Shown here: positions 18,138 to 49,357 of the stretch, one piece after another | Position numbering within the stretch: position 1 is the first letter of the stretch | Layout of the letters: every line of letters begins with the position of its first letter | From: Candidatus Doudnabacteria bacterium | GTDB lineage: Bacteria; Patescibacteriota; Doudnabacteria; UBA920 | DNA: 64,000 nucleotides | Reading direction: 5' to 3' | Assembly: GCA_963837465.1 (NCBI GenBank) | Contig: CAWINB010000004.1 | Span: forward strand, 330,853-394,852 | Made by a program: the position numbers and the translations under genes | The notes under the pieces: generated by a model | Told to the model about the DNA's origin: nothing | Seen by the model: the letters and a program-made list of their open reading frames with translations, nothing else | The model's database searches: none

Positions 18138-19121
18138 ATGTTTTATAAGGAAAGTGTCGTAGAAACATCTACGAAAACCGACAGTAGGGTTTTGCCATCG
18201 TCCCCGGCTGTTTACAGCCCAAAGATGAGCGAGTTGGTTGATGGGTTTTTAAAGCACGGTCAGTTTGATTTAAGCTGGTCGGCTGGGACAGTCGCAAAAT
18301 ACGGTGAGTGTTTACGGATGACTATTCGGGACATCGGCGATTTGCCGGTAAATGAAATCCGTTTGGTTCACCTTACGGAATTAAAATCTAAAATAATAAT
18401 GCGCGGAGCCGGAGAGTCCAGAGTCGGCTCAATGGTTTTTGCGTTAAAAAGTTTTTTAAAATACTGCAAGGAAATTGTGGAGTTGGATGTGCTGGACTTT
18501 AACAAGATTACCCCGCCAAAACGCCATCGCCGGGAAGTGCTGTTTTTGACCAACGAAGAAATTCAGCGGTTTGTGGATGTTATAAAAATAAAAAATACCT
18601 GGGATGGGAAAAATAAAAAGAGTTGCGTCCGAATGGATGGTCTAAGGTTCAGGGCTTTGGTAGAAGTCTTGCTTGGCAGCGGTATGAGAATATCCGAGGC
18701 GTTATCGCTTAACCGGGGTAGTATAAATTTTGAAAAGAAAGAGGCAAAAATTATCGGTAAAGGTAGCAAGGAACGCACGGTATTTTTTAACGATCGTTCG
18801 TTGGAATGGGTTAGGTATTTATTGGAAGAAAGGAAGGACAGTCACGAACCTTTATTTCTTTCCCAAAAAGGCAACAGGTGGGATAAGGGAGAAGTTAATA
18901 AACTGTTTCAGCGTTATACTAAAAAAGCGGAAATCACCAAAAAATTAACGCCCCATATTCTGCGGCATACTATGGCCACAAACTTACTTTTTAACGGTTG
19001 CCCGATTTCCCACGTCAAAGAAATTTTAGGCCATGATAGGCTGGAAACCACGTGCCGCTACTATCTGGGTTTGGACAAGAGTAAGGCCAAGGAGGCTCAC
19101 GAAAAATTCTTGAATTATTAA
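18138..19121 (+). CDS. tyrosine recombinase/integrase (class A)
   Basis: 327 aa with LLGSGMRISEAL...IIGKGSKERTVFF...HILRHTMATNLL...GHDRLETTCRYY. The R..H..R..Y catalytic residues are present. Confidence 0.85.
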   Translation: MFYKESVVETSTKTDSRVLPSSPAVYSPKMSELVDGFLKHGQFDLSWSAGTVAKYGECLRMTIRDIGDLPVNEIRLVHLTELKSKIIMRGAGESRVGSMVFALKSFLKYCKEIVELDVLDFNKITPPKRHRREVLFLTNEEIQRFVDVIKIKNTWDGKNKKSCVRMDGLRFRALVEVLLGSGMRISEALSLNRGSINFEKKEAKIIGKGSKERTVFFNDRSLEWVRYLLEERKDSHEPLFLSQKGNRWDKGEVNKLFQRYTKKAEITKKLTPHILRHTMATNLLFNGCPISHVKEILGHDRLETTCRYYLGLDKSKAKEAHEKFLNY

Positions 19122-19365
19122 AAAAATTTATTGAATAAATAGCTCAATTTCGCTATAATTAGAATAATTGAATAGGTGCCTAACCCCATGGCTAAAACTA
19201 TGGGTATGGTAGAAGTAAAGAATCCTCAGCTACGTAAAGACGGTCTCTTAACCGCTCTCGTAGCTGAGGTGCGTGCGAAAGCATGCGGTGGTGTCGAAAG
19301 GCACTGCTGCGGTTGGGAGGCCCTTTTTGTATCCAACCGCAATTTAAAAACCTCAGCTACAACAA

Positions 19366-21255
19366 ATGAATAACAAATCACTGATTTTTGAATTGCCCAA
19401 AATTGTGGAAGAGGGCAAAAAAGAAGTTGAAAAAATATTGGAACGGCTTTCCAGTCAAAGTCGGTTAGGTTTGCAGACTAATGAGCTGGTTCTACCGGCA
19501 AAAGATAGTGGCGGGCTTTTTCGCGGGCATATAGCAGAACAGAAAAACAATGAGTGGCTGAATCGCTTAATATATGGCGATAATTTGTTAGCTATGCAGG
19601 CTTTGCTTTCCGGCGATGAGCAGAGCGGTCTTGCCAGTATGCGTGGGAAAATAGATTTAATTTACATTGATCCACCGTTTGATAGCAAAGCTGACTACCG
19701 CACAAAGGTTACCTTGCCTGGCGTGGATTTGGAGCAAAAGCCAACAGTTATAGAACAATTTGCATACGCCGATACTTGGAAAGATGGCACCGTAAGCTAT
19801 TTGAAAATGCTTTATCCTCGTCTTGCTTTAATGCGCGAGTTGCTCTCCGAACAAGGCAGTATTTATGTGCATATTGATTGGCACGTCGGGCATTATGTAA
19901 AAATTTTACTTGATGATATTTTTGGAAAAAATAATTTTAGGAACGAAATAATTTGGTGGTATCTTTGGGGAGGAAGAGGTAAGACACAATGGAATAGCAA
20001 ACATGATAATATTTTATTTTATTCCAAGGATAATAATTGGATTTTTAACTTTAAGGATGTATTAGATGATCACAATTTAATGACAGAAGGGTCAAAAAAT
20101 AGGTTGAATTACAAAGGTGCGATGGTAACTACCAAAAGCGAATCCTCAGAAATACCCGAAGATAAAGTGCTGCCTTCTGATACTTGGTATATAGCAACCA
20201 TTAATGCAATGGCAAAAGAAAAATTAAATTATGGTACTCAAAAACCAGAATCTTTGGTAGAAAAAATAATCAAAGCATCTTCAAATGAAAATTCCATTGT
20301 AGCAGATTTTTTTGCGGGGAGCGGGACAACTGGAGCGGTGGCGGAAAAACTTGGACGGAGGTGGATTATGTCGGATATTGGCAAGCCAGCGGCTTTGATA
20401 ATGCGCAAACGGTTAATTGACCAAAACGCCAAACCGTTTTTGTATCAATCCATCGGCGACTACCAAAAAGAAGCGTTTACCTCCTCAAAGTTATACCGCC
20501 GGGTTGGCGACCTGGCCCAGGTGGTATTGCAACTTTACGGCGCAATCCCTTTTACAGAAGACCAAAGCCAAATGCGAAATTTGGGGTATATAAAAGACAG
20601 TAAAACTTTGGTAATGGTGGATTCGCCGAATAAAATGACCGGCCTTGCCACGCTTAAAAAAGCGCAGGAGCTTAAAGCCAGTTTTATGGGCGGATTTAAC
20701 AAAGTGGTGGTCTTGGGCTGGAATTTTACTTTTGATATTACCGAAGCTATTCATTCGCTTAACGATAAAAGCGTGGAAGTTTTAGTTATACCCCCGGATC
20801 TGTTAGATAAGTTAAAGAGCAAAGCTGATTACAAAGACTTGATTGACAGCGGTAAAATTCGTTTTTCCTCTTTGCAATATCTGACTTTAAAACCAATTAC
20901 GGTAAAAATATTGCCGGATGATAAAGAACAGTTGCATGTTGAATTAGATAATTATGTTTTACTTTCCCCAGACAACATACCTTTGGACGAAAAGGACAAG
21001 GAAAAATTAAAAGAAGTCATTGCTAAAGATCCATTGTCTTTGGTTGAATATTGGAGCATTGATCCCGATTATGACGGAGTTACTTTTCGCAGCCTATGGC
21101 AGGATTATCGGGAAAATGAAGACAATGACGCAGAGCCTTACCATGTTGTAAAATCGGTAGATTTGACTGTCCCCAAAAAGAAAGAAAAAAGAATTGTATG
21201 CGTAAAGGTCGTGGATGTTTTTGGTTTTGAAAGTATTGCGACCGAGGAAGTTTAA
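19366..21255 (+). CDS. mod: Type III restriction-modification methyltransferase (Mod, N6-adenine)
   Basis: 629 aa with the IDPPFDS (DPPF/Y) motif and AdoMet-binding [11 protein letters not shown]. It is followed 4 nt later by the res helicase. Confidence 0.8.
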
Positions 21256-21258
21256 CAT

Positions 21259-24171
21259 ATGCCATCACCAATCAGCATAGGCACAAGGGACATTCCCTTA
21301 AAACTTGCCAAGACAATTAGTGAGAAAGTAAATTTAGCTTGGGACAGTGGAGAGTTTTTAGACAAGACCACGGCCGTTACTCAAGATTTGCTAAAATTTT
21401 GGTTTACCGAACCACACATAGAAAACCGATATATTAATTTTCACTCCGGCCAGCGCCAGGCTATTTTAAACACCATTTATTTGCACGAAATTTTAAGCAC
21501 GAAGTCCGTTAAAGATATTTACGAGAACATAGAATTTGAACTGTTGCCGGAAATAGACATAGCCGAGCTAAAAAAGCCAAAATACGAAATTCCCAAATAC
21601 GCTATTAAGATGGCAACCGGGACGGGCAAAACATGGGTGATGCACGCCTTGTTAATTTGGCAATATCTAAACGCCAAATATGAAGCCCAAAAATCAGGAA
21701 AGTTTTCCAAGAACTTTTTATTAGTCGCCCCCGGCATAATCGTCTACGAACGGCTGCTGGATGCTTATTTGGGTAAGGAAAATGAAAATCGGGAACGCCA
21801 ATTTGAGCAATCTGATTTTTACCAGTTTAAGGATTTGCTCTTGCCTCCGGCCTTTAGGGAAGAATTTTTTGGCTTTATCCAGTCGGCCGTAGCCAAGAAG
21901 CAGGACATCGGCAGCAAGGTGACTGGTGACGGCCTGATCGCCATTGCCAACTGGCATTTATTTATGGGGGAAGAAGAATCGGAAGACAAACCCGTTTCGC
22001 CATTAGACAGTCCACAACAAATCCTCAAAGACATCATGCCAATTCGGCCGGGAGTATCCGGCGGCAATTCTTTGGATGCTTTAGATAGTGCCTATTGGGG
22101 CGGCAAGGAATTGGATTATTTGGCCAATTTGCCGGATTTAGTTTGTATAAATGACGAGGCACACCACATCCACGAAAATAAAACCTACGGGGAAGTCAGC
22201 GAGGTGGAATGGCAAAAGAGCTTGAATAAAATTGCCGCCTCCAAAGGCCATAAATTCATGCAGATAGATTTTAGCGCCACCCCTTACGACGTAACCGGCA
22301 GCGGGCAAAATCGTATCAAGCATTACTTTCCCCACATCATTGTGGATTTTAAGCTAAAGACGGCCATAGACGGCGGCTTTGTAAAGACCATAGCCATAGA
22401 CAAGCGCAAGGAACTTGTGGATTTGCCTTTAGACTTTAAATCGGTACGGGACGAAAACAATACCGCTATTGCGCTCTCGGACGGGCAAAAGCTGATGATC
22501 CGTGCCGGATTAAATCGATTAAAAATTCTTGAAACGGAATTTGTTAAATTCACTAAAGATGCCGATGGGGTTTCCAATAAATATCCCAAAATGTTGATCA
22601 TGTGCGAGGATACTAAAGTTACGCCATTGGTTGAGGCTTTTTTTCTGGACGAAGGCTTAAGCGAGGACGAGGTGCTTCGGGTAGATTCCAATAAAAAAGG
22701 CGAGATACCGGAAACGGAATGGAGAGAACTTAAACAAAAATTATTTAATATTGATAAGCATGATAAGCCTAAAGTTATTATTTCCGTGCTCATGTTGCGT
22801 GAGGGTTTTGACGTAAATAATATCTGCGTTATTGTCCCGTTGCGTTCGTCCGCCGCCCCGATTTTGCTGGAACAGACTATTGGCCGTGGTTTGCGGCTGA
22901 TGTGGCGGGAGCCGGAATATCGTGAAGCCAAAATGGACAATATCCGGCAATTGATAAAAGAAAAACGGGAACCGCAAAACTTGCTGGACTTGCTGTTTAT
23001 TGTTGAGCATCCGGCGTTTTTGCAATTCTATGAGGATTTAGACAAAGAAAGCATCGTAGAAGTTGGTGACATACCAGAGGGAGGGGTGTTGGGGGAAATT
23101 ATTAAGGTTGGCTTAAAACCCGACTGGCAAAAATATGATATGTATTGGCCGATCATCTTGCGTGATGCGGAAGATGAAATGTCCGGCAGCCGTCCGCCGG
23201 TTGAAAAAATGGAAAAATTTACCGTTTATGCGTTGGAAGATTTAAAGAAGTTTTTTCATAAAGGCGGCGAAAAATTCGTGTCCGAGGAGTTAACCGTTAA
23301 AACCCGTTTTGGGGAGTACATGGTAGATGCCAGCCTGTTTACTTCCCAAAGCTATAATGAGTATTTGCAGAAAATAATCCACGCAGTAGTCAATAGGACG
23401 GCGAAGACAAGTGCACGTGGGCATAAAGTTTACCCGACGTTACAAATAAACCAACTGCAATTAGTTGAAGCTTTGGATTTTTATATCCGCAATCTGTTGT
23501 TTGGTAACTCATATGACCCGTTTGTTGATAATAATTGGAAAGTGCTTTTACTGAAGAATGGCGTTGTTACCCAGCATATCGTCAAAGAGGTGGGCAAACT
23601 AATTTTTGAAATGCAGAATAACACTACCACGAGCGAGGCATTGGTAGAAAAGCGCCATTTTGCCGAAGTGGACAGTTTGAGGATGAGGGAAAATTATTCC
23701 TTGCCGATTGTAAAAACTATTTACGAAAGATTGCGCTACCCTTCTAACAAAGGCGGTTTTGAAAAAGACTTTTTAAGCTATGCGGATGGCGACGGGCAGG
23801 TGGAGGCGATAATTAAAATCGAAGAATACCAGCACACCTTTGCCGTTATCAACTATATGCGTTCCGATGGTTTTCTCGCCCAATACCACCCGGACTTTTT
23901 AGTGCAGGCGGTCAATAAAATCTATGTTATTGAAACAAAAGCCGACAAAGACATTGACGATAAAAATGTCCGGCAAAAGCAGCTGGCTACGCTGGATTGG
24001 ATTAAGCGGATCAACGGGTTAAAAACCGAAGACAGATTAAAAAAAGAATGGGAATATGTTTTGCTAGGTCAAAGCAATTTTTACGGTTTAAGCAAAAACG
24101 GGGCTTCCATAACTGAAATTTGCGAATTAGCCAAGGTTAGCGAGGCTGCGGTGACCGGCAGGCTACTTTAG
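21259..24171 (+). CDS. res: Type III restriction enzyme Res subunit (SF2 helicase-nuclease)
   Basis: 970 aa with Walker A ATGTGKT, DEAH-like NDEAHH and helicase motif VI QTIGRGLR. Confidence 0.8.
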   Translation: MPSPISIGTRDIPLKLAKTISEKVNLAWDSGEFLDKTTAVTQDLLKFWFTEPHIENRYINFHSGQRQAILNTIYLHEILSTKSVKDIYENIEFELLPEIDIAELKKPKYEIPKYAIKMATGTGKTWVMHALLIWQYLNAKYEAQKSGKFSKNFLLVAPGIIVYERLLDAYLGKENENRERQFEQSDFYQFKDLLLPPAFREEFFGFIQSAVAKKQDIGSKVTGDGLIAIANWHLFMGEEESEDKPVSPLDSPQQILKDIMPIRPGVSGGNSLDALDSAYWGGKELDYLANLPDLVCINDEAHHIHENKTYGEVSEVEWQKSLNKIAASKGHKFMQIDFSATPYDVTGSGQNRIKHYFPHIIVDFKLKTAIDGGFVKTIAIDKRKELVDLPLDFKSVRDENNTAIALSDGQKLMIRAGLNRLKILETEFVKFTKDADGVSNKYPKMLIMCEDTKVTPLVEAFFLDEGLSEDEVLRVDSNKKGEIPETEWRELKQKLFNIDKHDKPKVIISVLMLREGFDVNNICVIVPLRSSAAPILLEQTIGRGLRLMWREPEYREAKMDNIRQLIKEKREPQNLLDLLFIVEHPAFLQFYEDLDKESIVEVGDIPEGGVLGEIIKVGLKPDWQKYDMYWPIILRDAEDEMSGSRPPVEKMEKFTVYALEDLKKFFHKGGEKFVSEELTVKTRFGEYMVDASLFTSQSYNEYLQKIIHAVVNRTAKTSARGHKVYPTLQINQLQLVEALDFYIRNLLFGNSYDPFVDNNWKVLLLKNGVVTQHIVKEVGKLIFEMQNNTTTSEALVEKRHFAEVDSLRMRENYSLPIVKTIYERLRYPSNKGGFEKDFLSYADGDGQVEAIIKIEEYQHTFAVINYMRSDGFLAQYHPDFLVQAVNKIYVIETKADKDIDDKNVRQKQLATLDWIKRINGLKTEDRLKKEWEYVLLGQSNFYGLSKNGASITEICELAKVSEAAVTGRLL

Positions 24172-24192
24172 CATTATGGATTGTAAAAATTT

Positions 24193-24369
24193 ATGTCACA
24201 TGAAGATTTAGACATTGACGAGTTCAAAAGAATTTTTGGAAAGTATTATGACAAGCCGCTTTCCGACCAAGATGCATATGAAGGCGCTTATGATTTGCTT
24301 AACGCTTTTAAATGGTTAGTAGATCAGGACGAAAGCAACAATCTAAAAATTCAGCCAAAAACTAGATGA
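24193..24369 (+). CDS. small hypothetical protein (58 aa)
   Basis: ORF found by eye, below the track threshold. Its stop overlaps the next start in an ATGA arrangement. Confidence 0.35.
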   Translation: MSHEDLDIDEFKRIFGKYYDKPLSDQDAYEGAYDLLNAFKWLVDQDESNNLKIQPKTR

Positions 24370-24533
24370 TTTCTCAAGAAGCGTTAGAAAAATATAAGGC
24401 TATTTACAAGGAAGAGTATGGTGCGGATATTTCAGACGCAGAAGCCTTGGATTTGGCCGTCAATCTTTTAACAATGATGAACGCAGTATATCGGCCGATA
24501 AAAAAAGAATGGGCTGAAGATGCTGACCTTTGA
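24366..24533 (+). CDS. small hypothetical protein (55 aa), paralog of 24708..24893
   Basis: MISQEALEKYKAIYKEEYGADISDAEALDLAVNLL aligns with MISKEHLEKYKQIYKNRFGKELSNQEALEQATKLL of the ORF 340 nt downstream. Confidence 0.4.
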   Translation: MISQEALEKYKAIYKEEYGADISDAEALDLAVNLLTMMNAVYRPIKKEWAEDADL

Positions 24534-24560
24534 ATTTAACAATCAAATTTAGATAAATTT

Positions 24561-24698
24561 ATGAAGGTATTTATTAGGTTAGTGTTAGGCTTAGTGGCAT
24601 TATTGTTTATAACTTTTATGTCGGCTGCTTTTGGGATAGGCGGGTTTTTGTTCACGCTCGGTTTGTTTGCGGTTATAGTTTATGCTTTTGCTAGGTAG
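24561..24698 (+). CDS. small hydrophobic peptide (45 aa, two TM helices)
   Basis: MKVFIRLVLGLVALLFITFMSAAFGIGGFLFTLGLFAVIVYAFAR. It lies between the two paralogs. Confidence 0.3.
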   Translation: MKVFIRLVLGLVALLFITFMSAAFGIGGFLFTLGLFAVIVYAFAR

Positions 24699-24707
24699 CT
24701 ATTTTTT

Positions 24708-24893
24708 ATGATTTCAAAAGAGCATCTTGAAAAATATAAACAGATTTATAAAAACCGTTTTGGGAAAGAATTATCTAACCAAGAGGCTCTTGAGCAGGCC
24801 ACTAAGTTGCTTAGGTTAATAGAAATTATTTACCATCCCATGACCCAGGAAGAGCTGGATATGGTTAATAGGCGGAGACAGGAATTGGGTTAA
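24708..24893 (+). CDS. small hypothetical protein (61 aa), paralog of 24366..24533
   Basis: See paralog alignment. Confidence 0.4.
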   Translation: MISKEHLEKYKQIYKNRFGKELSNQEALEQATKLLRLIEIIYHPMTQEELDMVNRRRQELG

Positions 24894-24899
24894 AAAGCT

Positions 24900-26114
24900 T
24901 TGACTAAAGTTTGCCATCACAAAGCTTGGAATTTTGCTATAATTAAGAGGCACAAAGCCTCTTTTAATTTAACCCCCTCTATGAACTATATCGAAGATTG
25001 GAAATTATATCTTTGGAAAAAACTGTTGCTGAAATCTGATTATTTCAGCCAGCAAAACCTTAACCTATTTCAGGCTATCCGTAATTTTGTATTTGGCCAG
25101 GACTGGGGCGGAACTGTAGGCAACGATTTGATAGCACAAGCATTAATTGAAATGAGCAATTTTCAGCCGCCCGCTGTTGAGATTACCAACGTTAGGATGT
25201 TAAAAGATTACCGAGATTACCATTACAAGAGATTGTCTGAAGAAGAAGCAAAAAAGGCGCTCGCGGCTGCCACAAGCTCAAGCTATACAAATCCAAATTC
25301 CAAAACCGTCCACGTTGTTTTGCAGCCCAACCACGGATTGCCTAAAGAAGTAGACCAGAAGCTGGAGAAACTTGAGAAGGACAAAAATCTGGCTGACTTA
25401 GATTTGGCGGACTTAAAAACGATGGCCTATAATGCCAAGCTCCCTCAATACTTATGGAATTACGTTAGCTTTGATGCGAAATTCCACAAAGAGCCTTTAG
25501 AAAAAAAGCTAAACGATTACATCGACTCTTTTATCCAAGGGGATTTGGTAGCGCCAAGGGGTTTTAGACTTTACGGCCCAAGACAGCAGATGGAGAGAAT
25601 GTGGCAAACTATACAGGTATTAGCGACTGGTCAGGGCTCGAAAAACCTCAAAGTTACTTTGCGGGACATTGTGCCGCCGGGACGTAGCCCAGTAAATGAG
25701 CATAATCTCTATAAATTTTATGAAATGATACTGGCTTTGGAGCGCAGTGGCGACATCACAGTTACTGATATAGTCGGCTCCGAGGCAGTTATTTCCATAG
25801 CCCCAAGGCATTTAAAAAATCTCGACCCGGACTTAAGGATACCCCCTGCTTTTGCTAAATTTGAAGGCAAGTTTGTCGAACATGAACTTCATTGGTATTG
25901 CCCTATATGCGGCAACAAGATTAAAGTCTTTGAGGACAAAGACACGCTGGCGGAAACCCTTACTATCCGCACCAAACGCTGTAAAAACGGCCACGAAAAC
26001 AAAATAATGATTATCGATGATAAGCTGTATTTGGAAAATACGCCCATTGCCGTTTCAGAAGCAATGGCACACTTTAAGCGCAGGAATAAAGTCCAAAAAC
26101 CAGATGGCGTTTGA
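24900..26114 (+). CDS. hypothetical protein with C-terminal zinc-ribbon (CPICGN...C.NGH)
   Basis: 404 aa with no recognisable catalytic motif. The true start is possibly the Met at about 24981. Confidence 0.4.
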   Translation: MTKVCHHKAWNFAIIKRHKASFNLTPSMNYIEDWKLYLWKKLLLKSDYFSQQNLNLFQAIRNFVFGQDWGGTVGNDLIAQALIEMSNFQPPAVEITNVRMLKDYRDYHYKRLSEEEAKKALAAATSSSYTNPNSKTVHVVLQPNHGLPKEVDQKLEKLEKDKNLADLDLADLKTMAYNAKLPQYLWNYVSFDAKFHKEPLEKKLNDYIDSFIQGDLVAPRGFRLYGPRQQMERMWQTIQVLATGQGSKNLKVTLRDIVPPGRSPVNEHNLYKFYEMILALERSGDITVTDIVGSEAVISIAPRHLKNLDPDLRIPPAFAKFEGKFVEHELHWYCPICGNKIKVFEDKDTLAETLTIRTKRCKNGHENKIMIIDDKLYLENTPIAVSEAMAHFKRRNKVQKPDGV

Positions 26115-40823: not shown

Positions 40824-41861
40824 ATGGATACAAATTACCCCAATAAAATAAACAAAATTTTAAAGCCTAAGGCCGATAAGCGGTTGCCTTTGGTTATTGA
40901 CCTTTTTGCTGGCTGTGGAGGCTTGGCTTTGGGTTTTGAAGCGCAGGGTTTTGAAACTTTAGGCTATGAAATGGATAAAGACTGTTGCGAAACCTATAAT
41001 AAAAATTTAACTGGTAAATGTATACAGCAGTTTTTGGATGTTAATAGTGATTTTCCCAAAGCGGAAATTGTGATTGGCGGTCCACCTTGCCAGCCATTCA
41101 GCGTTAGGGGAAAACAAAAAGGTTTGGCCGACGAGCGGAACGGTTTTCCAGCTTTTATTGCCGCCGTTGAAAAAGCCAAGCCCCGCTTTTGGATGTTTGA
41201 AAATGTGAGAGGGTTATTTTACAAAAATAAAGAATATTTAAACGAAGTAATAGAAACGCTAAAAAATCTTGGTTATTTTGTTGAGTCTCATTTAGTTAAT
41301 GCTTCCAATTATGAAGTTCCCCAAAACAGGGAGAGGGTTATAGTAATAGGCTATAAAAATGGAAGTTTTAAATTTCCCCAAAAGCTCGGCACTAAAGTGA
41401 CGGCTGGGGAAGCTTTGGGCGAAATGGCCTTATCTGCTCCTAAGGGTTCAAGGTATTTGACCCCAAGTATGGACACTTATGTTGCTAAATATGAAGCGGC
41501 TTCTAAATGTGTTGTCCCAAGAGATTTGCATATGCACCTACCAGCAAGGACTTTGACGTGCAGGAATTTGTCGGGTTCTACAAGCGATATGCACAGAATT
41601 AAATTACCAAACGGCAAGCGTAGACAATTACTCGTTAGAGAGGCCGCTCGCTTGCAGAGCTTTCCTGATAAGTTTGAGTTTTGCGGGAGCGAGAGCAGTG
41701 CTTTTAAACAAATAGGCAATGCTGTGCCGCCTATGCTTTCCTACCACATTGCTGGTGCTGTAAAAGAATATTTGGAATCCGTAAATAAAACCCCGACCAA
41801 ACATATCAGAAATAATTCATTTGCTTACCAATATCAGCAAGCTATAAAATTCAATGTATAA
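40824..41861 (+). CDS. dcm: DNA (cytosine-5)-methyltransferase
   Basis: DLFAGCGGL motif I, GGPPCQPFS motif IV (PC), ENV motif VI. Length is 345 aa. Confidence 0.85.
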   Translation: MDTNYPNKINKILKPKADKRLPLVIDLFAGCGGLALGFEAQGFETLGYEMDKDCCETYNKNLTGKCIQQFLDVNSDFPKAEIVIGGPPCQPFSVRGKQKGLADERNGFPAFIAAVEKAKPRFWMFENVRGLFYKNKEYLNEVIETLKNLGYFVESHLVNASNYEVPQNRERVIVIGYKNGSFKFPQKLGTKVTAGEALGEMALSAPKGSRYLTPSMDTYVAKYEAASKCVVPRDLHMHLPARTLTCRNLSGSTSDMHRIKLPNGKRRQLLVREAARLQSFPDKFEFCGSESSAFKQIGNAVPPMLSYHIAGAVKEYLESVNKTPTKHIRNNSFAYQYQQAIKFNV

Positions 41862-42873
41862 AATCTTAGATAAGTTCGCTCCCTCGGCGGAATTTAAAAC
41901 GAAGTCAAAGCAAAATAAAATTTTAGTTGACCAAGCCGCTTACGCCTTGATGAAGTTTGGTGTGCCTTTTGACGGCCTGTCTTTTAGGAGAATAGAGCGG
42001 ATGGCATTGTCCTTTATGGCGGTTTGCCAAGTTAGCGCAAAAAGCCACTGGCCAAAAACTAAGGATTTTACGGACAAGGTTGCTATGAAAACTAGGGACA
42101 TTATCAATTACGTTAATAAAAATTTTCAGGAAAATATATCGTCTGGTTCCTATGACGACATCCGCAGAAAAGATTTAAAATTGCTGGTGCTTGGAGATAT
42201 TGTCATTAGGACTAACCCCGAAGCGGCAAGGAACGACTCTACCAGAGGCTATGCGCTGAATCCAGCTTACAAAACAATAGTTAAGGAAATTGGCAAACCT
42301 AACTGGGATACCACAGTCAAAAAGTTTTTAAAAGGTAAAAAGACGGTTGCGGAATTACTTTCTTCCAAACGCAATGTGGCGACTATTCCCGTCGTGCTTC
42401 CCTCGGGAGCCGAGCTTCAATTTTCGCTTGGAGAACATAACGTATTACAAAAAGCCATTATAGAAGAATTTTTGCCTCGCTATGGCTATGGCTCCGAAGT
42501 TTTGTATGTTGGCGATACAGCCGACAAGTTCTTATATTTGAACAAAGAGAAGCTGGAAGCTTTAAAGTTCTTTGAGCTATCCCACGGCGAATTGCCCGAT
42601 GTTGTCGCTTATTCAAAAAGCAAAAATTGGTTATACCTTATAGAAGCCGTTCACAGTTCGGGACCGATATCGTCCATTAGGCTTGCGGAGCTAAAAAAGC
42701 TCACACAAAAATGCACCGCCGACATTGTATACATAACAGCATTTTTGGACAGGGAAACTTTTAGGAAATTTATAAAAGACATTGCCTGGGAAACCGAAGT
42801 TTGGATTGCTACCAACCCTGACCATTTGGTGCATTTTAACGGCGACAAATTTTTAGGACCCTACAAACAGTAG
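41854..42873 (+). CDS. putative Type II restriction endonuclease partner of the C5-MTase
   Basis: 339 aa. The start overlaps the dcm stop, so it is operonic. The family was not identified from sequence alone. Confidence 0.45.
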   Translation: MYKILDKFAPSAEFKTKSKQNKILVDQAAYALMKFGVPFDGLSFRRIERMALSFMAVCQVSAKSHWPKTKDFTDKVAMKTRDIINYVNKNFQENISSGSYDDIRRKDLKLLVLGDIVIRTNPEAARNDSTRGYALNPAYKTIVKEIGKPNWDTTVKKFLKGKKTVAELLSSKRNVATIPVVLPSGAELQFSLGEHNVLQKAIIEEFLPRYGYGSEVLYVGDTADKFLYLNKEKLEALKFFELSHGELPDVVAYSKSKNWLYLIEAVHSSGPISSIRLAELKKLTQKCTADIVYITAFLDRETFRKFIKDIAWETEVWIATNPDHLVHFNGDKFLGPYKQ

Positions 42874-43047
42874 GGTTAGCAGGAGAGCCTATGAAAATCG
42901 CTTAAAAGGCGATTTTTTGCTATTATTTAGATATAAAATTGTTGGATAACAGTCGGGGAAAAAACTATATATAGTTAAACAAGATTTTAAAATTTTATAT
43001 AGTTTCAGCTAACCTTAAACCAAAAAAATACTGAAGTAGATTGGCTT

Positions 43048-43614
43048 ATGATAAATAGAAAAATGATTTTTGAAGAAGTAAAAAATTGCTCCAAAAAATT
43101 AGGTTTGGGTAAGGCGAAAGTTAGTTTGTTAATTGTAAACAAGTCAGCGAAAAACAGGTTGGGCAATTTGGAATTAGAAGGAGACATCTATGCGAATCTT
43201 TTGCCCCTAAAAAGTGGTTATAAAATTAGATTTAATATAACGACCATAAATGATAATAAGTTAAACCGTAAGCAGTTGCGTGGATTGGTTTTTCACGAGT
43301 TAACCCACATATTGCGTCACGAATACACAAAATTTATCAGAGGCAAAGACAAAATTTCCTACGCCGAATTTGTAAAAGCCAATAAAAATTATAGTTATTG
43401 GCACGGCAGTTCCATAATTTCTGATATTAACGAATTAGAGGAGCTTTTGATTGATATTTTTGTAACTAGGCTGTGTATATTAGAAGGGTTTTCTTGGGGT
43501 TTGCCAATAGAGGATGAAAGTGGCGAAGCTGTGAATGATAGGAATTATTTGTCCAAAAGAGCCGAAGACTTTTATAGTTCCCTAAAAGAAAAAATCAGTA
43601 ATTTAAATGTTTAG
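43048..43614 (+). CDS. hypothetical HExxH protein (FHELTHILRHEY), possible ImmA/IrrE-like metallopeptidase
   Basis: 188 aa with a single HExxH...H motif. First gene of a tight 5-gene co-directional cluster. Confidence 0.35.
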   Translation: MINRKMIFEEVKNCSKKLGLGKAKVSLLIVNKSAKNRLGNLELEGDIYANLLPLKSGYKIRFNITTINDNKLNRKQLRGLVFHELTHILRHEYTKFIRGKDKISYAEFVKANKNYSYWHGSSIISDINELEELLIDIFVTRLCILEGFSWGLPIEDESGEAVNDRNYLSKRAEDFYSSLKEKISNLNV

Positions 43615-43623
43615 AAAATCTTT

Positions 43624-43806
43624 GTGTATATGGCACTCAAAGAAAAGCAGGCTTACTATAAATGCAAAAAGTGCGGCGATGAGATTTATTGGAATACCCA
43701 CAAAAGGTATACCAAGTGCAGTTGCGGAGCTTTGGCGGTAGACGGGTGCGAAGAATATGTAAGGGTAATAGGCAACGCTAAGGACTGGGGGGAGATAAAA
43801 AAATAA
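43624..43806 (+). CDS. small zinc-ribbon protein (CKKCGDEIYW...CSCGA)
   Basis: 60 aa with four Cys in a CxxC...CxC arrangement. Confidence 0.4.
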   Translation: MYMALKEKQAYYKCKKCGDEIYWNTHKRYTKCSCGALAVDGCEEYVRVIGNAKDWGEIKK

Positions 43807-43817
43807 TTCTAGAAATT

Positions 43818-44237
43818 ATGTCAAACCAAGACAGGTTAAAAATGTCCGATGTATACAGAGATTTTGTTCCAATTTTTGGCAAGAAAGTTCCGTTTGCAGA
43901 AGCTTACCCGCAAATTGAGAATATTAAAGTTGAGGTTGAACAACGAGGACAAGGAGTAAGAGAGTGGAATAAAAATTGGGTCTTGAACGGTATAAATGAC
44001 TTTAGACAATATATAGATTGCAGTAATCCTTTATGCGCCAAAGGCGGTTTTGCGTTGGGTGAAATGGTGCGAGATATGGTGCGCAACAAAGACGAATCCT
44101 TTGAGCAGAGTAAAATTTGTATTGGCAACGAGGGGTCGCCAAAAGGTAAAAGAATTTACCGAAAGTGTATGAATTATTTTACTGTTAAGGTAGCTATTCA
44201 ATACAAAAAGGAAGTAGACAAAGAAAATAAAGAATAA
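43818..44237 (+). CDS. hypothetical protein
   Basis: 139 aa, part of the same tight cluster. Confidence 0.35.
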   Translation: MSNQDRLKMSDVYRDFVPIFGKKVPFAEAYPQIENIKVEVEQRGQGVREWNKNWVLNGINDFRQYIDCSNPLCAKGGFALGEMVRDMVRNKDESFEQSKICIGNEGSPKGKRIYRKCMNYFTVKVAIQYKKEVDKENKE

Positions 44238-44241
44238 ATTT

Positions 44242-44856
44242 ATGCCTGAAAGACCAGCCCCCGAAGAGTTTAATAGGCCAATAGAAAGTCGGCAAGACCA
44301 AACTACGCCGATAGAGTTTCCGCACGCCGAAGCTGGCTTGGAGGCTTACCTTAAAGAGTATCCAAACGAAGCGTCCAGAGCGGAAAAGTTACGAGCCGTG
44401 TTCCAAGAGTTTTTACAGCGGGAAATAAAAAACATAAAAATATTCAAATCAGAACAGCTTGGTGCCGAATTGCCGTATACTTCTATTAAGATTGGGGAAT
44501 TAGCAAGAAGCATTTACAAAAAATACGCTGAGGCAGACAGTTTACCTGTTGAAGCCCCCGATGTCGCACCAGTGGCTCAAGAATTTGTATTTAATTCAGC
44601 CTTGTCCACGGATGAGGGTAATGAGTTTAACTTTGTAGAGGAGGCTATGCACGAAGCCGTTAAACATTTGCCCGCCGCTCTTAAAGCACTTAGAGAGGGC
44701 AAAGCTCCCGAAGAACGGGAAGTTTTTACTCTTGGTATGCCAACTAATGTATTAGGCAGGGTGTCGCCCGAACTGGCGGACAGAATAAACAAAGAACCTT
44801 TTGAGGAATTGGGCAAAGTCTTTGCTGAATTGGTAAAAGCAGAGAATGCGAGCTAA
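44242..44856 (+). CDS. hypothetical protein
   Basis: 204 aa with the start 5 nt after the previous stop. Confidence 0.35.
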   Translation: MPERPAPEEFNRPIESRQDQTTPIEFPHAEAGLEAYLKEYPNEASRAEKLRAVFQEFLQREIKNIKIFKSEQLGAELPYTSIKIGELARSIYKKYAEADSLPVEAPDVAPVAQEFVFNSALSTDEGNEFNFVEEAMHEAVKHLPAALKALREGKAPEEREVFTLGMPTNVLGRVSPELADRINKEPFEELGKVFAELVKAENAS

Positions 44857-45817
44857 AGCAATAAAATTTCAAGGCGTATCTTTGAGTAGCAATATAGCAA
44901 TTAGAACGGCAGAAAATTTAGTTGAAAAAGGCTTGGTTACTCAAGACTTTGCCGTAGCCGAAAAAGACCATTTGCCGTATTTGCAAATTGAAGCCGAGGT
45001 TCCCGTTTCCCTTAGCCCGTCTAAAATAAAAGCCCTGCAAGTGCCAGTTGGTTTTTTTGCCGATGCTTTAAAAGAAAGAAAGTTGCCAGAAGTCAAAAGG
45101 ATAGAAGCTGGTAAGCCGCAGTTTGGAAAAGATGTAAATGAGGTGTTAGCCCAAAGGGGTATACACGAGCAAATGGCTGATGACCAAAAGAAGACTAAGC
45201 GTGGGGTCATACTTGATATACTCAAAAAGGTTGGCAACACTTTTAAGCCAAAACCTGAAACAAAAATTACCACCCTTTATGGTTTAAATGATTTAACCAC
45301 CAAGTCGCCGTCTATGGTTAAAGCGGCAAAAGTCCGCAAGCAGGAATTTGGCGGCACGCTTGGCCAAAACCTTTTGGAAAGGGCTAAGCCCAACGAAAGA
45401 GTGTTTACTGCCGAAATGATGCACCTTAGTCCTCGGTTTAGAAAAACTCAGCTAAGAAGAATGCGGGTGCTTGCTATAACTTTAGAAGATTTGGAACAGG
45501 GTAAAAATTTATTAGAGGTAGCACCAGAGCATATACCAACCCCCGAAGAAGTAAATTTGGTTTTTAGGGAACTAATAGGCAAGGAATACAGGGAAGTGCG
45601 TAAACGAGAAGACGAGCAAGGTCTTTACTTGTTAGAGGTGGAAGTTGCTGGAGAAGCGGAAGGTGAAATTACCGAATACGCTTATATGCGAAAAGGCCGT
45701 TATGCGGAAGGTCAAATTTCGGCAACCGAAATTCACGTTACTTATTACAAGGACGGCAAACCCGTAAGCGGAACATCGGCGGCAAGGTATGTTGATGGGG
45801 AATGGAGAATTCTTTAG
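44846..45817 (+). CDS. hypothetical protein
   Basis: 323 aa. Overlaps the previous gene by 11 nt. Confidence 0.35.
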   Translation: MRAKAIKFQGVSLSSNIAIRTAENLVEKGLVTQDFAVAEKDHLPYLQIEAEVPVSLSPSKIKALQVPVGFFADALKERKLPEVKRIEAGKPQFGKDVNEVLAQRGIHEQMADDQKKTKRGVILDILKKVGNTFKPKPETKITTLYGLNDLTTKSPSMVKAAKVRKQEFGGTLGQNLLERAKPNERVFTAEMMHLSPRFRKTQLRRMRVLAITLEDLEQGKNLLEVAPEHIPTPEEVNLVFRELIGKEYREVRKREDEQGLYLLEVEVAGEAEGEITEYAYMRKGRYAEGQISATEIHVTYYKDGKPVSGTSAARYVDGEWRIL

Positions 45818-45857
45818 TAATAGCATAAAAATGCCAATTTAGTTTTCCTACAAAAAG

Positions 45858-46056
45858 CTATTAAAACTCAATCGGCTAATTTAGGCTCTTAAACAATAGT
45901 GGGTAGCACAGAGGGTAAACTTTGGGAGGGGATAACTGTGTTGCTACAACTTTTTGTAATCGCTAACATCTGTGTAAGACTTTAAAAATTAAATATCTTT
46001 GCTGACCGAAGCGTAGTGCAGGAATTATTTTTTTACACCTCGGATTAAACACCTCC
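45858..46056 (+). repeat. right arm type 2 plus partial core (cacctcc at 46050-46056)
   Basis: About 190 bp homologous to 47521-47720 (ctattaaaact..aatcggct..aaacaatagtggg..gggtaaactttgg.aggggataact.tgttgcta...cgctaacatc...ttacacctcggattaaacacctcc). Confidence 0.7.
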
Positions 46057-46124
46057 ATACGGCTACAACTTCCTCACTTAGCAAAAATCGCCCAAAAGGC
46101 GGTTTTTTTTGTTATAATTTAACT

Positions 46125-47486
46125 ATGCACGAACCAACTGAACCTAATAATCAACCCTGTCCAGGTTGTGGCTATCCAGCTCAAGCTGGCCACGCTCCTA
46201 ATTGCCCTACTGTCAGCAAAGGCGAAAAGGAAAAAAACCTTGAAGGAGTAGAAGCAAGGAAGTATACGGCCGAGGATATACAAAATTTTCAGGGTGAATT
46301 ATCACAATTTGAAAAAATGCGTAAGGCTGATAATGCCAACTACGTCTTTGATTTTACCGAGTATTACCAATTTTTAACCCAGCACAAAAAATCTCAAGAA
46401 CGACCTTTTACACAAAGAGATGTTTCGACACCTGGCTATCAAGATTTGGAAGTTGGCATATTCAAAGGCTGGAAACAAAATTTGTTAGCCAAAAAAGACA
46501 AACTCATCCAGTCACGACCAAAATTAGCACCGATTATCGGAATGCTAGAGAGCGAGCCTACGCCAAAAACCTTAGATGAACTTCGGGATTTGTTTAGAAA
46601 ACATCCCGACTTAAATGAATTTGGCGCAGTCCAATACCAAGACGGCGTGGGAGAACAGGGAGAAAAGAAAAGCGGATTTTTGCATATCAATATGTCCCGC
46701 TATAACGGCTATGAATACGAACTACCCAAGACGGATACCAGAGTTTACTTAAACCCGCCACCCGAAGCTATACCGCAAATATCTATGGAGCTTTGTAATA
46801 TAGCACAGGCTAAAAGATTTCCGTTATATTTTAAAACCATAGATTATTCTTTTCAAAAACCCAATCCCGACAACACCAACAGGCTGGATAAGTTTATTGT
46901 TTATACAGACAAGGCGCACGTGACCGCTCTCTCCCAAGAATTAAAAACTTTGCAAAGCAAACATCCCGAATGGTTTAACGGCAGAGAATTGCCAACTATG
47001 GTTGCCAAAATGGGCGAGGGCGTGGGAGTAGCGGAAGACCCTAACGAACAACAAATGCAAAAGTTTGGCGAGCGTGGCAAGTCATTTAACGGTATGAGGG
47101 CTTTATTTTTAAAGGATGTTTGGACGGGTGTGACAAAAGACATTATCTTAGCGCAACGGACTTGGCGGCCAAGAGGCGGTAGGACTATGGAAGAAATTTT
47201 TAATGATAATCTAAAAGCTGGGCTAACTCGTAGGCAGTTACAGCCTAATGTGATAGCCGATGTTATCGGCAAGGCTTGGGCGGCACAATTAGATAGTTCA
47301 AGAATGGGAAGTCTTCCCGACAGCAGAATAGCAGATGAAGTTGATAATGCCGTGGCAAGAACTATGGCTGATGTAATTCCTAACATTACCCCTGATTCCT
47401 TGCAACCAGCCGTGCAAAACCAAATCAACAAAAAAGCAAAGGATTATTTTATTAACCCTAATAATTTAGCTTTTAATCAAATTTAA
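46125..47486 (+). CDS. hypothetical protein with N-terminal zinc-ribbon (CPGCGYP...CP)
   Basis: 453 aa. The only gene between the two type-2 right arms. Confidence 0.4.
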   Translation: MHEPTEPNNQPCPGCGYPAQAGHAPNCPTVSKGEKEKNLEGVEARKYTAEDIQNFQGELSQFEKMRKADNANYVFDFTEYYQFLTQHKKSQERPFTQRDVSTPGYQDLEVGIFKGWKQNLLAKKDKLIQSRPKLAPIIGMLESEPTPKTLDELRDLFRKHPDLNEFGAVQYQDGVGEQGEKKSGFLHINMSRYNGYEYELPKTDTRVYLNPPPEAIPQISMELCNIAQAKRFPLYFKTIDYSFQKPNPDNTNRLDKFIVYTDKAHVTALSQELKTLQSKHPEWFNGRELPTMVAKMGEGVGVAEDPNEQQMQKFGERGKSFNGMRALFLKDVWTGVTKDIILAQRTWRPRGGRTMEEIFNDNLKAGLTRRQLQPNVIADVIGKAWAAQLDSSRMGSLPDSRIADEVDNAVARTMADVIPNITPDSLQPAVQNQINKKAKDYFINPNNLAFNQI

Positions 47487-47520
47487 GGGATTATGGCCAG
47501 TTTAGTTTTTGTATAAGAAT

Positions 47521-47738
47521 CTATTAAAACTAAATCGGCTTTAAACAATAGTGGGCGGTAGTGGGGGTAAACTTTGGAGGGGATAACTTTGTTGCTAAAA
47601 AATTTTACTGCCGCTAACATCCGAGTAGCAATTTAAAAATTAAATATCATCGCTGTAAGCGAGCTTGAAAATAAATAGTGGGAGCGAGTGGGGGTGAACA
47701 ACTTTACACCTCGGATTAAACACCTCCTTTCTAAGGAA
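47521..47738 (+). repeat. right arm type 2 (second copy) plus att core copy 3 (47721-47738)
   Basis: See 45858-46056. The core is the full 18-mer cacctcctttctaaggaa. Confidence 0.7.
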
Positions 47739-47996
47739 CAATATGCACCCTTTTCCCTTTTCGAAGGGGAATGTTGGTTCACATTCCGTAGGTCGTCGTT
47801 AATTTTTTCGAAAATTAGCGCACTTCTTGAAACTTCAAAGAACGACGTAAACTGGTGGTTTTGTAACGGTAATTCTACCGTATTTAGCAATAAATACGGC
47901 CTAAGCGCCATTAATGCTTGGGATCACTATTTAGCCGTTAAAGGTTAAACACGAAATTGCAAAGAAAGTCTCGGCCGTTATGGTGCGAGGCTTTTT

Positions 47997-48968
47997 ATGT
48001 TCTATGCAAAAACGTCACTTGAATCAACCGCTAAAGTAGGAACTTTAGCGCCAATCTCCAATGATTTGACAATGAGCCAGCTCATTCCAATGTTTTTAAA
48101 GTACGGTCAGTTTGAATTAATGTTCTCACAGAACACGCTCACCAAATACGACGAGTGTTTAAAATGGGTTGTTAGGGACATCGGCGATTTGAAGGTCACG
48201 GAGTTAAGCCTGTTCCATTTTACCGAGTTAAAACAGATAATAACTAACCGTGGTTGCGGCACCAGCCGCGTTGCTTCCATGGTGTTCTCCATGAAGAGTT
48301 TCCTTAAGTATTGCAAGGACTATCTAGAGCTGCCGGTCATGGATTACAAAAAGATAAGGTCGCCGCGGTTTAAGCGCCGTGAAGTGATTTATTTAACTAA
48401 CGAAGAGATTGAGCAGTTTGTCAGCGCCATTAAAATAGAGAATGGCCCTCGTGCCATAAATTCGGTACGTATGGATGGCCTAAGGTTTCGGGTACTGGTG
48501 GAAGTCTTGCTCGGCACCGGCATGCGCATTTCTGAAGCCTTGTCGCTTAACAGGGATATGGTTGATTTTGAAAAGGCCGAAGCCAAGATTATAGGCAAAG
48601 GCAGCAAAGAACGTACAGTATTTTTCAGCGAGCGGTCGCTTGATTGGGTCAAGCGTTATCTATCCCTGCGTACAGACAATGAACCCGCTTTGTTTCTCAC
48701 CCAGCAGAATACGCGCCTGTCCAAGATAGATGTGCCCGGCTTCTTTAAACGGTACAGCAAGAAGGCCGGTATAACGAAGAAACTGACACCGCACGTGCTC
48801 AGGCATACCTGTGCTACGAACCTCTTGTTTAACGGCTGTCCCATAAACAATGTTCAAGTAATTTTAGGGCATGACCGGCTGGAAACCACCTGTCGCTATT
48901 ATCTCGGTGTTGACAAAACAAAAGCCAAAGAGGCACATGGCAACTTTTTAAATTATCAATTGTCGTAA
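47997..48968 (+). CDS. tyrosine recombinase/integrase (class A)
   Basis: 323 aa with LLGTGMRISEAL...IIGKGSKERTVFF...HVLRHTCATNLL...GHDRLETTCRYY. Confidence 0.85.
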   Translation: MFYAKTSLESTAKVGTLAPISNDLTMSQLIPMFLKYGQFELMFSQNTLTKYDECLKWVVRDIGDLKVTELSLFHFTELKQIITNRGCGTSRVASMVFSMKSFLKYCKDYLELPVMDYKKIRSPRFKRREVIYLTNEEIEQFVSAIKIENGPRAINSVRMDGLRFRVLVEVLLGTGMRISEALSLNRDMVDFEKAEAKIIGKGSKERTVFFSERSLDWVKRYLSLRTDNEPALFLTQQNTRLSKIDVPGFFKRYSKKAGITKKLTPHVLRHTCATNLLFNGCPINNVQVILGHDRLETTCRYYLGVDKTKAKEAHGNFLNYQLS

Positions 48969-49357
48969 TTTAGATACTTTGCGTGCGCGGCTTTCAGCGC
49001 GCGTTTATCGGTGCCCAGATAATACTGGGCCGTGGTGCGAATGTCCGAGTGCCCCAAGAGTTCCTGGATATAGCGGATGTCGCAACCGTTTTCCAGCATG
49101 ATCGTCGCGGCCGTGTGCCGCAGCGTATGCGGCGTGACTTTTTTCTTGATCCCGGACTTGGCCGCATACCTGCGGAATTCCTTGCCCAGGTCATAGCGGG
49201 CAAGCCGCTTGGCTTTGCCGAACGTCACGAAAAGGGCCAGGTTGTCATCGGTTCGGCTTTGCAGATACTTATTTATCCATTCCAAAGCGCGATCGCTTAT
49301 GAAAATTACCCGTTCCTTGTTGCCTTTGCCGATTATGGTAGCTTCTTTGGTTTGCAA
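48956..49357 (-). pseudogene. C-terminal fragment of a class-B tyrosine recombinase (N-terminal half deleted)
   Basis: 133 aa beginning IIGKGNKERVIFISDRALEWI and ending ...HAKYLNYDN. It aligns to residues about 190-322 of the 27917 integrase and converges tail-to-tail with the 47997 integrase. Confidence 0.7.

Follow-up and report, generated by a model that had tools for sequence, protein, structure and literature searches.

A total of six tyrosine recombinase genes or gene fragments were found within 31 kb of a 64,000-nt stretch of Candidatus Doudnabacteria DNA (contig CAWINB010000004.1), hereafter referred to as the window (W). The genes lie in units that are bounded by a repeated core sequence and that also carry restriction-modification (RM), toxin-antitoxin (TA), diversity-generating retroelement (DGR) and insertion sequence (IS) genes. 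They fall into two classes: class A, at the unit edge, probably inserts the units at the 3' terminus of a 16S rRNA gene, and class B is a second recombinase. All six open reading frames (ORFs) listed in the initial annotation are present at the stated coordinates and match the Pfam family PF00589 with E-values of 1e-30 to 1e-40. Three are of class A, two are complete genes of class B and one is a class-B fragment:

18138-19121, + strand: A1, edge integrase of unit E1 (PF00589, 1e-39)
34943-35929, + strand: A2, edge integrase of unit E2 (PF00589, 1e-39), starting 280 nt past the core
47997-48968, + strand: A3, edge integrase of unit E4 (PF00589, 2e-40)
27917-28885, + strand: B1, last gene of the Rep-B1 operon (PF00589, 1e-40)
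39633-40682, + strand: B2, last gene of the Rep-ParB-B2 operon (PF00589, 1.6e-38)
48956-49357, - strand: ORF of the B3 fragment (B3f; PF00589), with similarity extending to 49408 by tblastn

Loci from other contigs used for comparison are given L-numbered names (for example L001).

Tandem array at the end of the 16S rRNA gene

Analysis of the window revealed a complete 16S rRNA gene at 16287-17870 on the + strand (Rfam RF00177, 1274.6 bits, full-length match), the 3' end of which (GGATCACCTCCTTTCT) is the attachment site of the array. The terminal bases of this gene, CACCTCC(TTTCT), recur in five further + strand copies, at 34663, 46050, 47721, 51859 and 59936, and three of the six + strand CACCTCC cores are followed by a class-A arm. 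The 17-mer CACCTCCTTTCTAAGGA has three matches in the window against 0.13 expected. The recurrence of the core found at the 16S end identifies the region as a five-unit tandem array at one attachment site; the three independent islands proposed initially are thus units of a single array, two members of which are without a tyrosine recombinase. The cores and units are as follows:

17861-17867, + strand: core 0, CACCTCC, junction of the 16S gene and unit E1
17868-18137, + strand: class-A left arm of E1, beginning TTTCTAAGGAA, with TCACTATTTAGCCGTTA at +206 from the core
17868-34669: unit E1, with A1, LOOT RNA, a type III RM pair, a hypothetical gene, Rep and B1, followed in this listing by a DGR, a methyltransferase and BrnT/BrnA
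34663-34669, + strand: core 1, junction of E1 and E2
34670-46056: unit E2, with A2, a Rep-like gene, ParB, B2, a Dcm/PstI-like RM pair and further genes
46050-46056, + strand: core 2, junction of E2 and E3, followed by ATACGGCTACA and without a class-A arm
46057-47727: unit E3, with a single HopA1-like gene and no recombinase
47721-47727, + strand: core 3, junction of E3 and E4, where nucleotide homology with L170 begins exactly
47728-51865: unit E4, with A3, the B3 fragment, an IS256 transposase fragment and AbiEi/AbiEii
51859-51865, + strand: core 4, junction of E4 and E5
51866-59942: unit E5, without a tyrosine recombinase
59936-59942, + strand: core 5, where the array ends distally; TTTCTTTCGCAC and a LytR_cpsA_psr gene come next

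The units are multi-gene and range in size from 1.7 to 17 kb. In L162 a LytR_cpsA_psr gene likewise lies a few kb past the last core. The housekeeping genes RNase Y, YmdB and NusA are located 5' of the 16S gene, and no 23S gene is present in the window. Two further loci labelled Candidatus Doudnabacteria (L006 and L009) show synteny with the upstream part of the window and the same arrangement of 16S gene and array.

Comparison of the junctions revealed that E2|E3 and E4|E5 have only CACCTCC in common with the other junctions. Since nothing is shared there beyond those bases, the crossover probably takes place within the 7 bp of CACCTCC. At the left junctions of E3 and E5 the core is followed by ATACGGCTACA or CTCCGGCTACA (CACCTCC|ATACGGCTACA or CACCTCC|CTCCGGCTACA) and then by a terminator-like hairpin instead of a class-A arm. 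Units of this kind, without a recombinase, may have arisen by deletion or may be passengers that are non-autonomous. The right arms of E1 (34594-34669) and E4 (51790-51865) are 100% identical over 76 nt in units that are otherwise unrelated, and those of E2 (45889-46056) and E3 (47541-47727) have about 80% identity over 170 nt, 25 nt of it exact. Such shared right arms suggest arm exchange or recombination inside the array.

Sequence features of the two recombinase classes

Both classes belong to the tyrosine recombinase superfamily. The catalytic signature, namely the arginine (MRISE), the lysine (GKGxKxR), HxxRH (as HxLRH), LGH and YY, is kept in A1-A3, B1 and B2. B3f consists of the C-terminal ~150 residues, matching B1 residues 174-322, and lacks the first catalytic arginine owing to this truncation. 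The two classes are equal in length and layout and also have in common an unusual tail past the catalytic tyrosine, YYLGxDKxxxKxAHxK(F/Y)L. The motifs by which the classes were initially told apart are present with a small deviation, in that B2 reads KIVGKGNKERTVF and B3f reads IIGKGNKERVIF...GHSDIRTTAQYY.

Pairwise identity was found to be 59-63% among the class-A proteins, 51-65% among the class-B proteins (51-52% for B1 and B2, 63-65% for B1 and B3f) and 41-47% between the classes. When relatives were included in a bootstrapped tree, support was 88% for the B clade (12 members) and 73% for the edge-integrase clade, in agreement with the earlier proposal that A and B are distinct clades. The deep branching among A, B and other second-recombinase clades shows very short internal branches with low bootstrap values. 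The generic Xer-like genes found in the phylum group in a clade of their own.

By sequence, A and B are Xer-like enzymes of the simple type that lack an arm-binding domain, and the closest solved structures are XerA 5hxy, XerD 1a0p and XerC-like 4a8e (PDB E-values 1e-18 to 1e-30). Their NCBIfam scores are below the equivalog cut-offs for XerA (177-197 bits; cut-off 220), XerC (155-169 bits; 335) and XerD (145-180 bits; 330), and the integron integrase model TIGR02249 gave 83-99 bits against a cut-off of 265. Neither class qualifies as housekeeping XerC, XerD or XerA or as an integron integrase. Furthermore, the array is not an integron because its units own integrases, are multi-gene and have repeated ends that copy the 16S terminus.

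Class A as the probable integrase of the 16S site

In all three class-A units the gene starts 276-280 nt after a core copy (A1 lies 277 nt past the 16S end), so the initial placement of class A directly after the left arm holds throughout, and the arm itself is conserved in all three. Orthologues of A1 with 82-84% identity directly follow the 16S end in L001, L002 and L161, and altogether an A-type gene was found after the 16S end in ten other loci (L001, L002, L003, L006, L009, L161, L164, L170, L203 and L205). Comparison of L163 and L164 revealed 99.8% identity from exactly the core onward and different sequence upstream, where the core is preceded by the 16S end in L164 and by the right end of another element in L163; a breakpoint exactly at the core indicates an insertion polymorphism there. 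L205 carries a lone 4.9-kb A-only unit at the 16S gene with 45-nt direct repeats at both ends. The association extends beyond the phylum, as CACCTCCTTTCTAAGGA is located ~200-270 nt upstream of a related gene in Acidobacteria, Syntrophorhabdaceae and soil metagenome contigs of unassigned origin. The conserved block at the target includes the anti-Shine-Dalgarno sequence.

Three of the features by which islands targeting RNA genes are recognised were found: an integrase beside the 3'-end attL, a core repeated at the far end and an insertion polymorphism at the core. In the proposed mechanism, the 16S end and attP (right arm-CACCTCC-TTTCTAAGGA left arm) would be the two sites recombined by A, and integration of the circular form driven by A would regenerate the 16S terminus and duplicate the core.

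The motif TCACTATTTAGCCGTTA occurs at 18067, 34867 and 47925, at a fixed offset of +204 to +206 in each class-A arm. Its inverted form (A)AATAGTG was found at 45895, 47547, 47674 and 59896, that is 40-174 nt ahead of several right-end cores, and an additional copy lies at 15985, about 300 nt upstream of the 16S gene. These motifs are candidates for arm-type binding sites.

Pairing of class A and class B across genomes

Class A and class B occur together in one unit in W-E1, W-E2, W-E4, L001, L002, L010/L163-165, L161 and L170, and the pair is also present on the contigs holding P0006/P0134 and P0028/P0161. In total, no fewer than six other metagenomic contigs show the pairing. About 20 pairs of A and B database matches come from contigs of equal size. 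The A-A and B-B identity matrices of seven units are strongly correlated (Mantel r=0.94, p=0.002; r=0.87, p=0.0006 with B3f included), with B diverging faster than A, and the linkage holds over identities ranging between 99% and 58%. The association of A and B is genuine and long-standing and not a product of chance.

In unit E4, A3 and B3f are convergent and their stop regions overlap by 13 nt (48956-48968), as the tail-to-tail arrangement reported initially implied. L170 is an orthologue of E4, with the 16S end, an A3 orthologue (96.6% identity) and a convergent B3 orthologue (92.5% identity) that has an open frame of ~290 residues without a clear start codon and the same 13-nt stop overlap. 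Nucleotide homology between L170 and the window spans the core (47721) to 49411. The gene that abuts the truncated B3 in the window is the following:

49209-50210, + strand: IS256-family (Transposase_mut) gene, 5'-truncated, covering profile positions 119-377 of 379

Because the L170 homology ends where B3 meets the truncated IS256 gene, the tail-to-tail layout is native and the truncation of B3 is secondary.

The pairing is nevertheless not compact and not obligatory. Class B lies 8.8 kb (E1) and 3.7 kb (E2) downstream of A, and three A-only units were seen with both ends, namely L003-a (5.9 kb), CAYODY-b (7.1 kb) and L205 (4.9 kb), against 10.7-17.4 kb for units with both genes. No Rep, Par or primase gene was found in L003-a and CAYODY-b by Pfam scan or in L205 in the precomputed Pfam listing. 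A second recombinase was also not seen within 10 kb in L203, and B-clade genes without A within 10 kb were found in L011, L162, L166 and L168. The intact A-only units indicate that A generally has no need of B in cis. Hence B is not a universal partner of A, and of the two-recombinase module suggested earlier the recurrent, co-diverging pairing stands and the compact module does not, the genes being far apart in two of the three units and A-only units existing.

Comparison with soil-type loci showed an edge-type recombinase again accompanied by a second recombinase, which is convergent, in tandem or just upstream of the core and reading toward it. These second recombinases form their own clades, S3 (100% support), a group of twelve (97%) and S1 (63%), and every one of them goes with its own edge clade; S1, like the 368-aa type described below, groups with generic Xer proteins. 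A second recombinase is therefore a recurrent trait of this element family, and its identity varies. When JGI metagenome contigs were scanned with the B alignment, mostly A-like soil sequences were obtained and the soil recombinase pairs came to light, with no close relative of B in those contigs (best 47%). Searches of IMG/VR with the A and B alignments found no close relative (<=40% identity, partial) and no circular form, which indicates that the elements are not catalogued as viruses.

Soil contigs and Acidobacteria/Terriglobia metagenome-assembled genomes also carry fixed pairs or trios of paralogous recombinases that are clade-specific (L005, L007, L088, L090, L092-L094, L098, L099, L102, L104, L107 and L113). 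Some of these flank a CACCTCC core and others are without a core nearby.

Genomic context of class B

Class B genes are usually located with replication or partition genes. The features of the two complete operons in the window are as follows:

26420-26512, + strand: conserved 94-nt imperfect hairpin at the head of the Rep-B1 operon
26498-27703, + strand: Rep of E1, a rolling-circle-type initiator (Phage_CRI / phrog_702) and the gene preceding B1
27793-27867, no strand assigned: GTGCAA/TTGCAC cluster between Rep and B1, four motifs including the inverted pair ACGTGCAA-TCTT-TTGCACAT
37188-38048, + strand: Rep-like gene of E2 (phrog_270 'replication initiation protein', 1.8e-6)
38583-39614, + strand: ParB-like partition protein (ParB_N 4e-18, HTH_ParB), stopping 18 nt before B2

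The Rep-B1 operon consists of a terminator ahead (26376-26401), the hairpin, Rep and B1, and a perfect consensus promoter for the next gene lies 3' of B1 at 28963-28991. A strong terminator directly follows B2 at 40689-40720. The positions of these terminators and of the promoter identify B as the last gene of its operon. Elsewhere B or its relatives are preceded by a PrimPol/AAA_25 protein (L011), a DnaG-ribbon...TerL-like gene set (L166), a 942-aa DnaG-like primase (L206) or a DUF5659-containing gene set (L164, L166, L170 and the P0134 contig). Orthologues of B1 with 71-77% identity are present in L001, L002, L161 and L162, where they belong to an operon of HTH_17, a 368-aa recombinase and B (L001 7239-9758, L002 6376-8907, L161 6670-9211 and L162 8437-10981). 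The 368-aa recombinase is absent from the window, and the Rep gene occupies that position instead. B keeps its catalytic residues and appears to be a long-standing backbone gene of the larger elements.

The tgtgcaa repeats noted earlier upstream of B1 are real, since the density of the GTGCAA/TTGCAC cluster (4 copies per 100 nt) was reached in 0 of 300 shuffles. The cluster is a putative protein-binding site and a candidate B1 site; it was seen upstream of B1 only and has nothing in common with B2 or the orthologues. The 94-nt hairpin shows four covarying pairs and an invariant apical CTCATAGAGGGG (alignment and consensus fold). Its G-U pairs are specific to one strand, which points to a single-stranded DNA element or an RNA leader. 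The hairpin model R1 matches only E1-type elements (W, L001, L002, L161 and L162). Comparison with Rfam gave no significant match, only a single chance-level mir-268 hit (E=0.027, below the gathering score). As R1 misses E2, L010/L164, L166 and L011, the hairpin was ruled out as a general B site. An inverted repeat of 18/20 (26357-26376 / 27865-27884) brackets the hairpin and Rep and ends 33 nt before B1.

Att-like direct repeats around class B would, by the reasoning of the initial annotation, mark it as an independent nested element, and none were found. The search for long direct repeats flanking B gave short chance-level repeats only (24100-34700 and 35900-46100), no copy of the core (up to 3 mismatches) or of a right arm was found near any window B gene, and none of the 12 members of the B clade takes the edge position after CACCTCCTTTCT. 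Together with the co-divergence of A and B, the lack of att-like repeats rules out a recent independent insertion of B; an ancient fusion of a B-bearing element with an A-type element is possible. Two candidate repeats were rejected. The 10-nt ATTTTGGCTT at 26357, 27875 (reverse) and 28955 does not exceed chance, and its last copy overlaps the consensus promoter. A CACCTCC located 93 nt upstream of the B-like gene of L168, a high-GC locus with a tRNA-Pro gene 3.4 kb upstream of that gene, was considered as a B-type att site and has neither TTTCT after the core nor a second core.

Role of class B

We tentatively favour a function of B on the replicon after its excision, such as the resolution of multimers or cointegrates. 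The larger elements would excise and replicate as circles, on which B would recombine a site carried by the element, in the manner of Cre in P1 or ResD in F; for B1 the candidate site would be the GTGCAA cluster just upstream. The linkage of B to replication genes (Rep-B1, Rep-like-ParB-B2, PrimPol-B and primase-B) favours such a resolvase-like role among those put forward initially (resolvase, Xis surrogate or integrase for a second target), and the presence of second recombinases of other lineages in several clades is easier to reconcile with a modular accessory function than with a co-adapted partner. Tyrosine recombinases that act in multimer resolution include those of the Cre/loxP system of P1, the ResD/rfsF system of F and Rsd/crs. 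Like Cre and ResD, B sits with rep/par genes, and B1 also has an upstream short-repeat cluster that includes an inverted pair. Unlike them, B2 and the orthologues have no resolution site that could be found, and B has no relationship to them closer than the superfamily.

A number of observations weigh against a role in multimer resolution. No recombination site common to B1, B2 and the orthologues was found, B2 and most orthologues are without an upstream intergenic region, and no excised circle was observed. Rolling-circle replicons, as the Rep of E1 suggests, usually have no need of multimer resolution. The B gene of L001, L002, L161 and L162 shows translational coupling to the distant 368-aa third recombinase, the stop codon of which lies 1-16 nt ahead of the B start (1-2 nt in L001, L161 and L162), and an excisionase-like HTH_17 gene precedes both; an operon of this composition looks like a mobility rather than a maintenance module. 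Moreover, B adjoins A in unit E4 and in L170, and the second recombinase of soil-type relatives is often directly beside the core.

Two other readings, in which B takes part in mobility, were each judged unlikely. In the first, A and B would form a heteromeric integrase like XerC/XerD, both being needed for autonomous integration and excision; each enzyme would occupy one half-site (left like GGCTCGGTAA or the 16S GTCG(A)TGGAT, right TTTCTAAGGA) and exchange one pair of strands. A and B are indeed full-length simple Xer-type paralogues with 41-47% identity and a common C-terminal tail, a divergence resembling that of XerC and XerD (identity ~37%), and the half-sites around CACCTCC are non-palindromic. 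The strict co-divergence of A and B, the tight convergent pair in E4 and L170 and the clade-specific pairs that flank the core or sit side by side in soil-type relatives also agree with this model, and the many array units without one or both genes could be served in trans. However, physical linkage alone yields co-divergence. A-only units with intact ends are found singly next to the 16S gene (L205) and within arrays (L003-a and CAYODY-b), B-clade genes occur without A within 10 kb (L011, L162 and L166) and in L168, the second recombinases are polyphyletic, and B is placed with replication genes, kilobases from A and the core. It is likewise doubtful that A and B, along with the pairs of Acidobacteria, Syntrophorhabdaceae and soil contigs, would constitute a mobile-element counterpart of XerC/XerD that reads the asymmetric 16S 3' end together. 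In a variant of that proposal, B, with or without the 368-aa recombinase, would act on the hairpin at 26420-26512 as integron integrases act on attC. Comparison with the known Xer systems shows the same fold and domain layout, the catalytic residues and two ~40% identical paralogues together; the genes here differ in being on mobile elements, not housekeeping genes acting at dif, and in their scores of 145-198 bits against cut-offs of 220-335.

In the other mobility reading, also improbable in our judgement, B would be the integrase of a once-independent integrative plasmid of the pSAM2-like rep-(xis)-int type, anciently fused to or nested in an A-type element, and would still provide a second specificity in integration or excision, be it for a different target or, acting from the right-end side, for the same core. 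Actinomycete elements of the pSAM2 type have a rep-xis-int operon, a single integrase beside attP and a tRNA gene as target. The order of Rep or primase followed by B mirrors that operon, with the recombinase as last gene, and some relatives contain an excisionase-like HTH gene, as in the operon of HTH_17 (Xis-like), recombinase and B in L001, L002, L161 and L162. Between B and the right-end core, L161, L166 and L206 have only TA cargo (L166 additionally one large reverse-strand gene), and the soil-type second recombinase reads straight into the core. The B-clade gene of L168 is the sole recombinase on a 17-kb locus which has a tRNA-Pro gene, and the left junctions of E3 and E5 differ (CACCTCC|..CGGCTACA), so that another enzyme may have acted there. 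Against this, the att-proximal position, held in pSAM2 by its one integrase, is here held by a different recombinase, A, and by none of the 12 B-clade members. Neither an att-like repeat nor a core copy lies beside any window B gene, no second target site was identified, and the linkage to A is kept over the whole range of identities given above. Far less plausible is a DNA invertase that would flip the 1.5-kb segment of hairpin and Rep between 26357-26376 and 27865-27884 in phase variation. The 18/20 inverted repeat around Rep ending 33 nt before B1 resembles the usual layout of an inverton, in which a tyrosine recombinase gene lies beside a segment flanked by inverted repeats, and B3 is opposite in orientation. 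The repeat, however, is T-rich and exceeds chance only marginally, neither E2 nor the orthologous elements have it, B lying there 2-36 nt past the upstream gene, and the orientation of B3 is fixed and common to L170.

Comparison with known integrative elements

The 16S-targeted islands follow the logic of tRNA-gene islands overall, with 16S rRNA as the target. As in islands at the 3' ends of tRNA and tmRNA genes ('Islander' type; PMC4383910), the integrase gene sits just within one terminus, the structural RNA gene is targeted at its 3' end and regenerated, the core is duplicated at the far end and tandem arrays contain degraded units without an integrase. The differences are that the target here is the 16S rRNA 3' end including the anti-Shine-Dalgarno sequence and not a tRNA or tmRNA gene, that the integrase is of the simple Xer-like type and has no arm-binding domain, and that most larger units have a second paralogous recombinase.

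Other elements with two recombinases include Tn554 (TnpA/TnpB/TnpC) and the RIT/BIM recombinase trios and pairs. Strand-biased circularizing integrative elements have the gene order intA-CDS2-intB-CDS4 (PMC9345347). No counterpart of TnpC or of CDS2/CDS4 was recognised among the annotated window genes. The present elements resemble Tn554, the strand-biased circularizing elements and RIT/BIM in that two tyrosine recombinases are co-inherited in one integrative element. In those systems, however, the genes are adjacent in one core cluster, whereas A and B are 3.7-8.8 kb apart and in separate operons in E1 and E2 and are adjacent, and there convergent, only in E4 and L170. Unlike in two-recombinase transposons, A-only elements exist here, which argues against both enzymes being required for movement.

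Full-text literature searches, the coverage of which was incomplete, returned nothing on integrative elements that target the 3' terminus of the 16S gene, and a prior description is possible. A paper on insertions within the rRNA genes of candidate phyla radiation (CPR) bacteria mentions neither integrase nor recombinase. If the present reading is true, a widespread family of integrative elements, found in Patescibacteria and with relatives in Acidobacteria and other soil bacteria, lands at the end of the 16S gene, one of the most conserved sequences in biology. The regular second recombinase could mean a plasmid-like phase with its own resolution system or a portable two-subunit Xer-like integrase, and if the A/B pair were the latter it would have a universal, perfectly conserved landing site in several phyla. 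Either answer bears on gene movement in organisms with tiny genomes and no known plasmids, on why the 16S gene is often unlinked from the 23S gene and at contig ends in such genomes, and on the search for compact, highly specific recombinases for genome engineering.

Additional features of the array

The cargo of the array includes defence genes, namely RM systems, TA pairs, a DGR and RHS toxins. The DGR of E1 (29129-31717) has its variable repeat (29654-29782) at the 3' end of the ORF at 29129-29806, its template repeat at 30148-30276 and its reverse transcriptase at 30674-31717, and all 26 of the 26 mismatches between the repeats fall at template adenines. A block of B followed by a retroelement is also present in L012, L162 and the P0134 contig. 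Transposase genes, whole or fragmentary, were seen at three places within the array or next to it: rve-type at 14183-15469 (- strand), IS256-type at 49209-50210 and IS3-type at 53171-54139. The 16S gene of L006 carries a ~900-nt insertion (about 8372-9272) with a 143-aa ORF at the equivalent of window position 17390; the 16S gene of the window is without an insertion of this type. LOOT RNA (Rfam RF03000) appears to be linked to these mobile elements; in the literature its name matched only that of an author, in the 2017 motif paper. It occurs twice in the window, at 689-802 and, directly after A1, at 19177-19305, and in related elements at L003 4399-4512, L011 3083-3202 and L012 13342-13459.

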